Source: a virus (taxonomy: Duplodnaviria > Heunggongvirae > Uroviricota > Caudoviricetes). Taken from it: a stretch of 5,712 nt of DNA. Positions within the stretch are counted from its first letter, which is position 1; the number at the start of each line of letters is the position of its first letter. Below, piece after piece: positions 1-5,422 of the stretch. Location: the IMG/VR virus record IMGVR_UViG_2541047691_000020, positions 1-5,712 of that record. One strand, written 5' to 3'. Under the pieces are notes generated by a model. It saw only the letters and a program-made list of their open reading frames with translations, had not been told where the DNA came from and made no database searches. The position numbers and the translations under genes are program-made.

Positions 1-537
1 ATGATGCTTACCCTAGACGAGATAGGTCAATCTGTACGTAACAATATCCAGTTGATTATTGATCATGTCGGCTTACCTCTTGCTGTTGGTCCGCTCAGTG
101 ATGATGATTACAAGATTCTGTGTGGTGGCTATGGTGAGCTTGAATGGGACTATGCGTTAAGCACCTATGGCAACTCCAGAGAAAAGTATGAGTTCTGCAT
201 AAAACTTGTTCAGCAAGGTCGGGTTCAGGGAATACCATCAGGAGCAGCAATTTGTGTTTATGGGGTTGAAGAAAACATCTTTCGTATCCATATGATCGAA
301 AGGTTTTCTAGAGAAGATGAATCTCACCCATTGAAAGGGCGCATGGTTTTACTCACTCTTATGAGTGCTTTTATATTTTGTAAAGCTGTTGAATGTAAAG
401 TTGTCCACATTGTAGAGCCAGTACCAGAACTGGTGCAGTATTACGAGTCTTTTGGTTTCCGCATGGAACAGTGCGGTTATGTGATGTCTGCAGTCATTGA
501 TGAGCTGCAGGATATCTTTCTTAAATTTGCTCAGTAG
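1..537 (+). CDS. Hypothetical protein with GNAT-fold-like (N-acyltransferase superfamily) motifs; N-terminus coincides with the window edge, so the true start is unverified
   Basis: 178-codon ORF from ATGATG at 1-6 to TAG at 535-537. The C-terminal half shows a GNAT-like pattern read by eye: 'HPLKGRMVLLTLMSAF' (P-loop-like turn then helix), 'KVVHIV' (strand), 'PELVQYYESFGFR' (helix ending in GF). It is on the opposite strand to the prophage operon and looks AT-richer (roughly 37-42% GC sampled by eye). No homology search was possible. Confidence 0.55.
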   Translation: MMLTLDEIGQSVRNNIQLIIDHVGLPLAVGPLSDDDYKILCGGYGELEWDYALSTYGNSREKYEFCIKLVQQGRVQGIPSGAAICVYGVEENIFRIHMIERFSREDESHPLKGRMVLLTLMSAFIFCKAVECKVVHIVEPVPELVQYYESFGFRMEQCGYVMSAVIDELQDIFLKFAQ

Positions 538-1236: not shown

Positions 1237-1272
1237 AATTTTCTCCATCAAAACCGGCTGCACCCGGGAAAA

Positions 1273-2692: not shown

Positions 2693-3229
2693 TCACTCTC
2701 CTTTGATGCGAATGTCAGCGACGCGTAATGCGTGTTCCAGGTCAATCAGGTAAAGCCAACTGCCATTTTCTTTAGGTATCATGACATGTCGCTCATCTGC
2801 ATTTATCGGGTGTCCATATCGAAGGTCGTAGCGAGTCGGTAATTGAACTTCCCGCGCTTCCAGTTCAGCAATACGCTTGCACCCATCAGAGATAACTCCC
2901 TCGTAATACTCGCGCTGCTCGTTGAGTTTTGATTTTGCTGCTTCAAGCTCAACGAGCAGCTTCCCAACCGTAAGCGCAATATCCTCGTTCTCCTGGTCAC
3001 GGCGTTTGATGTATTGCTGGTTTCTTTCCCGTTCATCCAGCAGTGCCAGCACGGTTTCTGGTCCGTTCAGAAATTTGAAGGCGTTGAGCGCATCAATATC
3101 CACACCGTAATCTTTAAGTTCCTGTTCACTTAACAAATCATCATCAGCTGGCAACATTAACAGGCGTTCCATTGCCGGAATTGCACGTTCTGCCGCCTCA
3201 CGCAGTGCCTGATAGTCAATATTGCTCAT
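2693..3229 (-). CDS. Ea22-like coiled-coil protein (lambdoid 'ea' region)
   Basis: 178 aa with an ATG start. The central region is rich in heptad-like E/K/L/R runs ('ENEDIALTVGKLLVELEAAKSKLNEQREYYEGV...IAELEAREVQL'). The N-terminal 'MSNIDYQALREAAE' resembles Ea22-like prophage proteins from memory. The ORF is flanked by tight stop-start junctions. Confidence 0.7.
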   Translation of the reverse strand: MSNIDYQALREAAERAIPAMERLLMLPADDDLLSEQELKDYGVDIDALNAFKFLNGPETVLALLDERERNQQYIKRRDQENEDIALTVGKLLVELEAAKSKLNEQREYYEGVISDGCKRIAELEAREVQLPTRYDLRYGHPINADERHVMIPKENGSWLYLIDLEHALRVADIRIKGE

Positions 3230-3530: not shown

Positions 3531-3943
3531 TGGTTGCCTCCTTTACGAAGCTGGGCGGCGAACTCGTCGCATACGTGCGTTAAAGAGCAAATCTGGATAG
3601 CAGGATGCTCGCGCAACAATTCAACACCCTGCGCACGTACTTCAGCCAGGAAAGCGTCGGTGGCTGACATATTTCCTGTTGCCTTCATGGCCTCCAAAAT
3701 AACCAGAACGCCATCTCGCCCAACCAACACGGAGATAATCTCAGTGTTGTCGCCAACAACCTCACAGAATGCCTGAACAGCTTTACGAGCCAGCTCATTC
3801 TCCGCCGCCAGCGCCGCGCACTTGGCCTCCGCTTCAGCAAATTTACGCACCAGATACTCAGCATTTGTTTCATTCACTTTCAGATCTCGTGGTACACATT
3901 TCCCGCGAAGAAACCCTTCCATTTCGAAAACATTCATGCGCAT
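3527..3943 (-). CDS. Hypothetical phage protein, 138 aa (positional equivalent of yfdS)
   Basis: ATG at 3941-3943 has GGAG 8 nt upstream; a second in-frame ATG at 3935-3937 forms an ATGA overlap with the stop of the HD-domain gene. The protein is Ala/Glu-rich and helical. The length differs from K-12 YfdS (about 120 aa as I recall), so no symbol is given. Confidence 0.65.
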   Translation of the reverse strand: MRMNVFEMEGFLRGKCVPRDLKVNETNAEYLVRKFAEAEAKCAALAAENELARKAVQAFCEVVGDNTEIISVLVGRDGVLVILEAMKATGNMSATDAFLAEVRAQGVELLREHPAIQICSLTHVCDEFAAQLRKGGNQ

Positions 3944-4470
3944 TTGCGTAACTCCGATAACTCGTTAAAACGTTCCATAAACATCCCGTAGGCATGGCTC
4001 GGAGCCAGTGGAATCACGTTGAACATCTCTGTTGCCGGGATGCCTTCCAGTACAGGCCAGAAAGAGCCATCATCAAGCCCGAGATCGCGACGTTCGGTTG
4101 CCAGCATGATGAGATCGGCATATTTCACGGGTGTACTCATAACTGGTGGTAACCCGTATTTCTCACGGATTACGGCGTCTATTTTTTCTTCCATCCGTTT
4201 ATAGTCAGGAAGAAGGCGTTTCAGTGGCGCCGGGATGTCCTGGCAATACGCTTCTGTTGCATCATGCATTAACGCTTCAAAAGCAAATTCCTGCGGTACC
4301 AGTTGGCTGCAAAGCACCGCATGTTGGGCGACGCTGTAGAAATGTGAAAGATGTCCTGCAAAGCGACAGATATTTGAAAGAGAAACCGCGATATCGTTAA
4401 TAACGATGTCGTCTTTATTTATCCTGTCATAATAAAAATGCTTCCCGGAAAAAGTTTTAATAAATGACAT
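3934..4470 (-). CDS. yfdR: HD-domain phosphohydrolase, YfdR-like (5'-nucleotidase-type HD protein of KplE1/CPS-53-type prophages), 178 aa
   Basis: HD signature: 'SVAQHAVLCSQL' (first His), 'EALMHDATEAYCQD' (HD dyad plus downstream Asp). The track start (4497) is GTG; the ATG at 4468-4470 has GGAG 7 nt upstream and gives 178 aa, which matches the length I recall for E. coli K-12 YfdR. A YfdQ-like 274-aa gene is immediately upstream. Confidence 0.8.
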   Translation of the reverse strand: MSFIKTFSGKHFYYDRINKDDIVINDIAVSLSNICRFAGHLSHFYSVAQHAVLCSQLVPQEFAFEALMHDATEAYCQDIPAPLKRLLPDYKRMEEKIDAVIREKYGLPPVMSTPVKYADLIMLATERRDLGLDDGSFWPVLEGIPATEMFNVIPLAPSHAYGMFMERFNELSELRKCA

Positions 4471-4563
4471 TTTGTTCTCCACGTATATGCGCTGCACCGC
4501 GCTGAATTCTGGTAAAAGGAAGCCCTCACCATCTGGCGATTATTGAGTCAATTACGTTTCCAT

Positions 4564-4585
4564 AAATGCCCCCGCAGGGGCATTT
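4564..4585. other. Perfect GC-rich stem-loop (9-bp stem aaatgcccc/ggggcattt, loop cgca) in the 100-nt gap between the yfdQ-like and yfdR-like genes
   Basis: Checked base by base. On the minus-strand transcript it is followed by only UUU then AUGG, so it is not a canonical intrinsic terminator. Confidence 0.5.
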
Positions 4586-4597
4586 GCAGTAATGAAA

Positions 4598-5422
4598 TCA
4601 GGCGGTGAAAGTACCAATAAAGGTTTCTACTTTGCTGTCTTTGAATTTCTCAACAAGCAGATCACGAAATTCGTTAGCCATTTCTTCCTGCACCGCTTCC
4701 AGCTGAATAATGCGCAGAACCAGTACAGGACGATCACCAGTGATAATGCTGAGGCGTAATTTAAACGGACGTTCTTTCAGGCCTTCAAACGGAACGCATT
4801 TAAACTCAAATGCTACTGGCATAATGTCTTTGGTTTTCGCTTCGACAGACTCCATCAAAGAGCGTTTGCCGCTGAAGTCATTATCTTCAAAATCAGCGGT
4901 CTGGTTTGCTTCAATCGTGATTTTACGGACTGCCGCAGCCGCTTTTGTTGCCTTAATAGCGTCACCATTAGCATCAAAGCCCACAAGATAGTCGGCCCAG
5001 TCTTCAATCCATTCTGCCAGTGACTTCTGGGAGTTACGCTCGCCATTAACAGACAGCAGGGCAGAGAACGGTGCTGTCTTTTTCAGTTTGAGAGTGGCGG
5101 TGTTATCTGCGTGACCTGGTTCATCAATAGTACCCAGGTTAAGCACACTGATGGCTCGCATATTATCGGCATCGATAAAGCAGCGGGTGCCTTCATCTGC
5201 AAGATCTTTAGAATAACGGGTAAAGTCATCGATGCTGGCAGTGGAAAGCGCACCACGGAAACGGAAGCGATTTAAATTAAATTTTTCCAGATCATGAATG
5301 CGGAAATTCTCAGGCAATGCCACAGCATCGGCACCAATCTTACTGATAATTTCATTAACACCCTGAGCAGAAATAAGGGCATGGATTTGATTAATTGCGG
5401 TTGCGTCTAAGTTCTGAGACAT
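4598..5422 (-). CDS. yfdQ: YfdQ-like uncharacterised prophage protein, 274 aa
   Basis: ATG at 5420-5422 with GAGGA about 7 nt upstream. The 274-aa length and the immediate downstream 178-aa HD-domain gene match the yfdQ-yfdR arrangement of E. coli K-12 CPS-53 as I recall it. No catalytic motif recognised. Confidence 0.75.

Follow-up and report, generated by a model that had tools for sequence, protein, structure and literature searches.

A conserved three-hairpin untranslated leader upstream of yfdR in the early-left operon of lambdoid prophages

Several kinds of RNA hairpin are known from positions between genes or ahead of them in polycistronic transcripts. Lambdoid early operons carry terminators such as lambda tL1 and tR1. 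Phage early mRNAs also contain hairpins processed by RNase III, among them the T7 intercistronic sites (R1.1, for example) and the lambda N-leader site, and an RNase III processing site is double-stranded over about two helical turns, roughly 20 positions or more. Other intercistronic stem-loops stabilize mRNA, as do REP in malE-malF and the hairpins of the puf and pap operons. The leader that we describe here, between the yfdQ-like and yfdR-like genes of a lambdoid prophage, is an uncatalogued addition to this known class of RNA structures, which act in cis from leaders or from between cistrons. Rfam 15 gave no match in positions 4471-4597 at E values up to 10, and no match to the leader in 12 diverged loci (E up to 1) or in the ST64B, phiNP and VT2phi_272 loci (E up to 0.1); scans that also took in the rest of the window, the region from cI to yfdP and 15 diverged loci in all gave only STnc100 matches, below threshold and outside the leader. 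The spacer is not discussed in the literature naming yfdQ or yfdR. This structured RNA is present, uncatalogued, in some of the best-studied genomes, and is directly testable in K-12.

The window, the whole 5,712-nt stretch of viral DNA analysed (IMG/VR record IMGVR_UViG_2541047691_000020), is the early-left region of a lambdoid prophage with its operon running leftward, and positions 4400-4700 are 100% identical to the E. coli PMV-1 prophage over the compared stretch. The leftward gene order is yfdP (outside the window), yfdQ and yfdR; 3′ of yfdR comes a compact block with ead/Ea22-like genes and then genes of the DUF551, exonuclease and prtN-like types. The features are collected in Table 1. 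An earlier note on this DNA, made from the sequence alone, described a gap of 100 nt (4498-4597) between yfdQ and yfdR, a figure that arose because the GTG at 4497 proposed by the ORF finder was taken as the yfdR start. The gap is in fact 127 nt, since yfdR starts at the ATG at 4470, a start backed by the RefSeq annotation of PMV-1, by a GGAG Shine-Dalgarno sequence (SD) and by the homologue alignment; the yfdQ stop codon is TGA (4600-4598, - strand). It is true that most junctions of the leftward operon are overlaps, as the same note had it, but two further gaps exist, 66 nt between yfdP and yfdQ and 35 nt upstream of the prtN-like gene. At the far end of the window (1-537, + strand; L004 3725-5508) the prophage adjoins zur in PMV-1, and this zur-side end has two hypothetical + strand genes and no integrase. 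The ead/Ea22-like gene at about window positions 2858-3229 is annotated in PMV-1 as a truncated pseudogene.

Table 1. Coordinates of the genes, leader elements and hexaloop hairpins (window positions unless L004 is given)
Feature	Position	Strand	Basis
yfdQ-like gene (DUF2303/YfdQ family)	4598..5422	-	ORF list; RefSeq annotation of PMV-1 prophage
Untranslated leader between yfdQ and yfdR, 127 nt	4471..4597	-	gap lengths in relatives; covariance model R1
Possible lower extension of H1	4551..4597	-	MFE fold; pair counts on A4; walk on A7
H1 hairpin (5′ arm 4585-4577, loop 4576-4573, 3′ arm 4572-4564)	4564..4585	-	inverted repeat; covariation and G·U pairs in relatives
H2 hairpin (UCGCC 4539-4535, loop AGAU 4534-4531, GGUGA 4530-4526)	4526..4539	-	CG/UA/UG and GC/GU/AU exchanges
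H3 hairpin (CGCG 4501-4498, GUGCAG hexaloop 4497-4492, CGCA 4491-4488)	4488..4501	-	covariation; conserved loop
yfdR translation start (SD GGAG 4480-4477, AUG 4470-4468)	4468..4480	-	GGAGAA invariant in alignment; annotation
yfdR-like gene (HD-domain 5′-deoxynucleotidase)	3934..4470	-	ORF list; PMV-1 annotation; homologue alignment
Hexaloop hairpin before prtN-like gene	1254-1267	-	
Hexaloop hairpin before yfdR (H3)	4488-4501	-	
Hexaloop hairpin H0, just upstream of yfdP	L004 10472-10487	-	
Hexaloop hairpin of the repeated family	L004 15934-15949	+	

The first hairpin of the leader, which we call H1, starts 12 nt past the yfdQ stop and reads AAAUGCCCC-UGCG-GGGGCAUUU on the transcribed (-) strand. 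The perfect 9-bp stem-loop reported in the earlier note is present, with arms complementary at 9/9 positions around a loop of 4 nt. Its description as GC-rich holds for the core, while the whole stem consists of five G-C and four A-U pairs; the statement that a U-tract is lacking agrees with the failed rule of the terminator scan, but a weak tract follows the GC core, namely AUUUAUGG with 4 U in 8. An intrinsic terminator has a GC-rich stem of about 5-14 bp with a short loop and, directly 3′ of it, a U-rich tract; the stem of H1, with 9 bp, five G-C pairs and the UGCG tetraloop, agrees with this, and the tract does not. H1 by itself is only weakly above chance: three perfect hairpins with a stem of 9 bp or more and a loop of 3-8 occur in the window, whereas 300 dinucleotide shuffles averaged 0.15, with one or more in 13% of them, and folding of the whole gap was unexceptional (z = -1.18). 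Since the hairpin alone is weak evidence, the case rests on conservation and covariation in relatives.

The check proposed earlier, whether the stem covaries in homologous prophages, came out clearly positive: H1 is 95-98% paired, and both partners have changed in 4-8 of the nine pairs. In a MAFFT alignment of 29 distinct leaders (A4), H1 was 97.7% paired and 4/9 pairs had changed on both sides, with AU/UA/GC exchanges and 17 G·U cells at two H1 positions; the closing pair of H3 in the same alignment was GC in 14 cases, AU in 6, UA in 4 and CG in 1. Two further alignments were fitted to the covariance model and are thus biased towards the modelled structure: A6 (38 sequences), in which H1 was 97.6% paired with 8/9 pairs changed on both sides (97.8% and 14/18 pairs overall), and A7 (83 distinct viral sequences), in which H1 was 95.5% paired with 5/9 pairs changed and about 80 G·U cells within H1, and in which H2 is invariant by construction because the sequences were picked by an exact match to its 3′ arm. 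The sequences also share descent. H1 was recovered by RNAalifold on A4, each measure was reached by only 0-1 of 500 shuffles of A4, and slid controls were 33-63% paired (33-50% on A4). Compensatory changes were present in all three hairpins described below. Because G·U pairs are A·C mismatches on the opposite strand, many of the pairs are valid only on the mRNA strand, and of 124 distinct regions 93 folded more stably as the sense strand; on both grounds we rejected the terminator of an antisense sRNA. Comparison of these sequences thus shows that H1 is an RNA structure under selection, formed on the mRNA strand where the operon has a genuine break.

The leader is widely distributed. A 301-nt query comprising the leader and its flanks matched 2,990 of 5,426 complete E. 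coli genomes as well as 57 phage records, including SfV, SfIV, cdtI, mEp460, Stx2c phages and Ayreon; the genomes include K-12-derived strains and O157:H7, and the leader is also found in Shigella, Salmonella, Klebsiella, Citrobacter and other prophages. Among 50 distinct versions (84 loci) H1 was almost invariant and the remaining spacer more variable, with CGCC/GGCG to CACC/GGUG exchanges in the small second hairpin. Scanning the YfdR alignment against one genome per species gave 79 loci of more distant relatives, from Escherichia, Shigella, Atlantibacter, Phytobacter, Buttiauxella, Leclercia, Enterobacter, Citrobacter, Klebsiella, Kluyvera, Mixta, Erwinia, Izhakiella, Serratia, Yersinia, Ewingella, Morganella, Gilliamella and others. 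In all loci with yfdQ next upstream (40 loci) the gap is kept, at lengths of 80-143 nt that do not differ in multiples of 3, and it is conserved across more than 15 genera in which the flanking proteins are just 55-70% identical. The gaps of these distant relatives fold into H1, H2 and H3 on the mRNA strand, with H1 arms that vary by lineage (AAAUGCCCC/GGGGCAUUU; AAAUCCCCGG/CCGGGGAUUU; AAUUGCCCUG/CGGGGCAAUU; AAUAGCCCCCG/CGGGGGUUAUU; AAGUGCCCUC/GGGGGUACUU). The covariance model R1 matched only the sense strand and only the leader, once per locus (100 matches in 100 loci, 934 kb; one match in the 18-kb PMV-1 locus spanning cI to Q). In E. coli MFDS1016424 (L292 1586-1901) an IS1 remnant 15 nt upstream of the yfdR AUG removes H1-H3, which explains an E. 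coli junction that retains the SD alone; this strain is a natural deletion of the leader that could be used for comparison.

H1 is the first of three conserved stem-loops, arranged in the untranslated leader as H1-H2-H3-SD, a unit that is kept in prophages of many Enterobacterales. H2 is followed directly on its 3′ side by a conserved GGG (4525-4523, - strand); across lineages it reads AUCGCC-N3-4-GGCGA and then GGGAUUCG..CAACC.AAAA. H2 and its AGGGAUUCG..CAACC.AAAA tail are kept even in Serratia, Ewingella and Pantoea, with a conservation on par with that of coding sequence. H3, the hairpin closest to the start, is separated from the yfdR AUG by 18 nt; its stem in the window has three base pairs and, at its foot, a C·A mismatch, and no U residues come after it. 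Its general form is a GC stem of 4-6 bp with a GUGCAG hexaloop, followed by a GGAGAA SD, and the loop is conserved as far as Gilliamella while the stem covaries. An outer stem around H2 (GCGUAAUUCC with GGGAUUCGU) was 81.6% paired with almost no covariation, and we did not adopt it; it competes with the lower stem of H1 and could be part of a switch. We also noted that GAGGG(C/A)U 3′ of H2 (4523-4530) and the A(U/C)GGAGAA of the SD (4477-4482) place two GGA motifs about 45 nt apart on the - strand, a pair which resembles paired CsrA binding sites. Other contents of the gap were considered and rejected. A small ORF is not supported, the ORFs being of chance type, the gap lengths not varying in multiples of 3 and the substitutions compensatory; no sigma-70 promoter was found in the gap by scan, TTGACT at 4551-4546 lacking a -10 element and not being conserved; and a sigma-54-like match, seen by eye in Ewingella-type sequences, fails in most lineages.

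The loop of H1 varies both in sequence and in length (3-11 nt), so that H1 is a structural rather than a loop-specific element. In most relatives it tops an irregular helix, predicted to be 13-22 bp, whose strands begin with UAAUUGC at the yfdQ stop codon and end with GCGUAAUU. That stop codon covaries with the opposite strand at its second base (AU 16, GU 5, GC 3 in A4), and where yfdQ is absent an unrelated sequence, CGCUUCA, forms the lower 5′ strand and pairs with UGAAGCG. Walking outward below H1 on A7, we found positions 1-5 to be 97.6%, 12% (a conserved mismatch), 89%, 62% and 50% paired and positions 6-9 to be 97.6%, 100%, 60% and 97.6% paired, position 7 being made up of CG 42, UA 32 and UG 8. 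The two outermost A-U pairs of H1 and the U-U-A that follows are invariant. The candidates for the lower stem in the window are UUUCAU (4597-4592) with AUGGAA (4563-4558) or AUUAC (4593-4589) with GUAAU (4555-4551); in this E. coli lineage the lower stem is weak, with few variants and those uncompensated, leaving 9 solid base pairs and a doubtful further 5-6.

The leader, including H1, is linked to the downstream gene slot and not to yfdQ. In SfII-type prophages yfdQ is swapped for a GC-rich, seemingly non-coding stretch, while the H1 core and everything downstream are kept, the homology breaking just 5′ of the H1 core. In Stx2a phages the yfdQ homologue is followed by a different gene, after a 76-nt gap without an H1-like hairpin. 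These two arrangements rule out that H1 is a 3′ appendage of yfdQ. We scanned IMG/VR with an exact pattern for the H2 tail and obtained 120 loci, with yfdR downstream in about 65 and the same H1-H2-H3-SD leader before other genes in about 50; the translated non-yfdR genes resemble the ead/Ea22-like ORFs that lie 3′ of yfdR in the window. In the phages without yfdR, the leader comes directly after a hairpin H0 (GGCGG-UGGCAG-CCGCC) and the 3′ end of a non-coding, STnc100/PasD-like stretch downstream of cI. Because H0 stands just upstream of yfdP in the prophage of the window (L004), yfdP and yfdQ lie between H0 and H1. Conserved RNA hairpins thus mark the joints between gene modules in these early operons, a point of relevance to the assembly of mosaic phage genomes. 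The GC-rich stretch downstream of cI (SfII, L002 3227-3600, - strand; L004 10470-11135, - strand; L169 1227-1345) contains only implausible ORFs and gives sub-threshold STnc100 scores of 39.5 and 35.1 bits against a gathering threshold of 47; SfII-type prophages have this stretch in place of yfdP-yfdQ, directly next to H1. Both STnc100 and PasD have been described as sRNAs of prophages (bioRxiv 10.64898/2026.05.13.724894).

The function that the anatomy of the leader fits best is that of an RNase processing or stabilizer element, one of three proposed in the earlier note, which computation does not separate; we give a boundary of mRNA processing or stability a probability of about one in three (0.35). 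H1, the apical stem of the first leader hairpin, would then be a functional element of the leftward polycistronic mRNA, and its helix, extended in most relatives to the predicted 13-22 bp from the upstream stop codon, would serve as a boundary after transcription. The helix could be cut by a double-strand-specific RNase of the RNase III type, or it could block exonucleases and the 5′-end-dependent RNase E; in both cases the mRNA of yfdP-yfdQ would have one lifetime and that of yfdR and the genes downstream another, and yfdR would be translated independently from its own strong SD, beside the hexaloop hairpin H3. Cutting or protection, and the consequence for expression, are our inference; the structure, its strand, its conservation, its link to the downstream slot and the lack of a family-wide U-tract are what the sequences show. 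By analogy, the leader may be likened to the RNase III sites of T7 and lambda N in having an irregular helix of about 20 positions, between cistrons or in a leader before a start, on a polycistronic phage early transcript, although H1 in the window has just 9 solid base pairs, which alone is short for RNase III, and the 13-22 bp of the relatives are predicted. Base-pair preferences of E. coli RNase III substrates have been described (PMC6212723). The leader may also be compared with REP and the puf and pap stabilizers as a stable intercistronic stem-loop that could set differing mRNA lifetimes; unlike these, H1 is not dispersed, with one copy per phage, and goes with the downstream slot, not with the 3′ end of the gene before it. 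The invariant AA...UU base would be superfluous in a plain stability hairpin and resembles the A-tract and U-tract flanks of a terminator. A table of RNase III sites has none in the yfdQ-yfdR spacer among the entries listed, those for yfdR, yfdP and yfdS being coding positions only, with floor-value ratios.

The terminator-like base of H1 leads to an alternative that we hold only somewhat less likely, namely that H1 is a leaky intrinsic terminator of the early-left operon, comparable with the tL-type terminators of lambda, which would lower read-through into yfdR and the genes downstream unless RNA polymerase were termination-resistant. H1 shares with tL1 and tR1 a GC-rich stem with A/U-rich flanks between early genes; it has a stable UNCG loop, an A-rich 5′ and a U-rich 3′ flank with AUUUAUGG after the core, and an AA...UU stem base, followed by A, that is invariant. 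The depositors of the phage Ayreon record annotate H1 as a terminator, and in L093, L099 and L110 canonical terminator-like hairpins with U5-6 occupy its position. The yfdR product binds DnaA, overexpression of YfdR interferes with DnaA and overexpression of the gene cluster blocks replication initiation (PMC4776307), so control of yfdR expression plausibly matters to the lysogen and insulating the gene would be sensible. Against termination, besides the failed U-tract rule of the scan and the weak tract of E. coli (4/8), most lineages have the flank AAUUAGUGAAG and a longer helix, and the 8 nt after the full helix contain at most two U in 63 of 92 distinct sequences; moreover, H1, unlike tL1 and tR1, always precedes two more conserved hairpins. 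No N-like gene or ORF and no nut-like site were found between cI and yfdP, and the K-12 3′-end table has no yfdQ or yfdR entry, which is uninformative if expression is low; our guess is that the cryptic prophage is too weakly expressed for K-12 end tables. The internal attenuator of the earlier note is the least favoured of its three functions. H1 is the 5′-most element of the leader, and the family has no U-tract after the full helix, so a classical attenuator is unlikely; nor does the leader have the 3′-end terminator with a competing upstream structure that defines attenuators and riboswitches. Should H1 be a plain stability hairpin or a weak terminator, the finding would be routine, with the leader and the hexaloop family keeping their value for the catalogue.

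The H1-H2-H3 leader as a whole could instead be a regulatory RNA bound by a protein or by the polymerase, acting on translation of the next gene as an operator or enhancer, or else serving as an RNA signal for antitermination, with H1 as the scaffold and the conserved sequences as recognition elements; we regard this as less likely than the two readings above, though still a live rival. A protein-binding site, the remaining function of the earlier note, fits H3, with its conserved loop and varying stem, better than H1, whose loop is not conserved. Binding would account for the GUGCAG loop kept to Gilliamella, for the recurrence of H3-type hairpins directly upstream of many SD sites and for H2 and its tail being as conserved as coding sequence, and in SfII-type phages the leader is located where lambda nutL and HK022 putL sit, between the early-left promoter region and the first gene, with no N-like ORF seen. 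It is at odds, however, with the single copy per phage, there being none in the rightward operon where the two-promoter arrangement of nut and put would place a second; boxA/boxB-like consensus sequences were not seen by eye, and no candidate binding protein was found. The leader hairpins are also spaced unlike the two adjacent put stems of HK022 (PMC9378689). R1 gave no match in the HK022 region of nun, cI and cro even with filters off, and we rejected a put-like element for lack of sequence or structure similarity to that region. Very improbable, finally, is that the gap is only a linker or a scar left by recombination at a mosaic boundary, its junction DNA conserved but without function as RNA. 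The homology breakpoints of SfII-type prophages at the edge of H1, the different genes joined on either side of the leader and the IS1 insertion truncating it in one strain are all consistent with such a boundary, but a DNA linker does not explain the compensatory changes, the strand-specific G·U pairs or a lower stem upheld by unrelated sequences.

H3 is one member of a repeated family of hairpins, each consisting of a GC stem with a [G/U][G/U]GCAG hexaloop followed, after 5-10 nt, by an SD and AUG. In the prophage of the window such hairpins stand before yfdP, yfdR, the prtN-like gene and, in the rightward operon, a KilA-N gene, and the 18.3-kb prophage has 5 copies against 0.145 expected. 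Related loci, 1.9 Mb in all, yielded 236 distinct contexts, and in 166 there is an SD and a start codon within 30 nt. The hairpins thus precede several unrelated early genes in both operons, with SDs of the GGAGAA type. Because stems vary and the loop is conserved, the loop is suggested to be the recognized part. No description of the family was found in Rfam or the literature, where a search on GUGCAG hairpins in phage gave nothing relevant. Whether the H1-H2-H3 leader and the hexaloop hairpins together form a previously undescribed phage system controlling early gene expression is quite doubtful; if they do, the reader of the hairpins would be RNA polymerase, the ribosome or an RNA-binding factor of phage or host origin, and each gene would have its translation, processing or read-through set individually, in lambdoid prophages where we found no N-like gene.

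Two other hairpins in the window lie outside the leader. At 926-951, on both strands, a terminator-like hairpin that is strong and symmetrical, GAAAACCCGCC-TTTA-GGCGGGTTTTT flanked by T-runs on either side, separates the + strand ORF 734-907 from the convergent prtN-like gene on the - strand, and explains weak Rfam matches to leaders and sRNAs there. At 4388-4412 (+ strand), within the yfdR coding region, an 11-pair inverted repeat (GCGATATCGTTAATAACGATGTCGT) was flagged by the scan as terminator-like on the antisense strand, with a weak STnc310 match nearby (E = 0.94); this repeat is probably due to chance.
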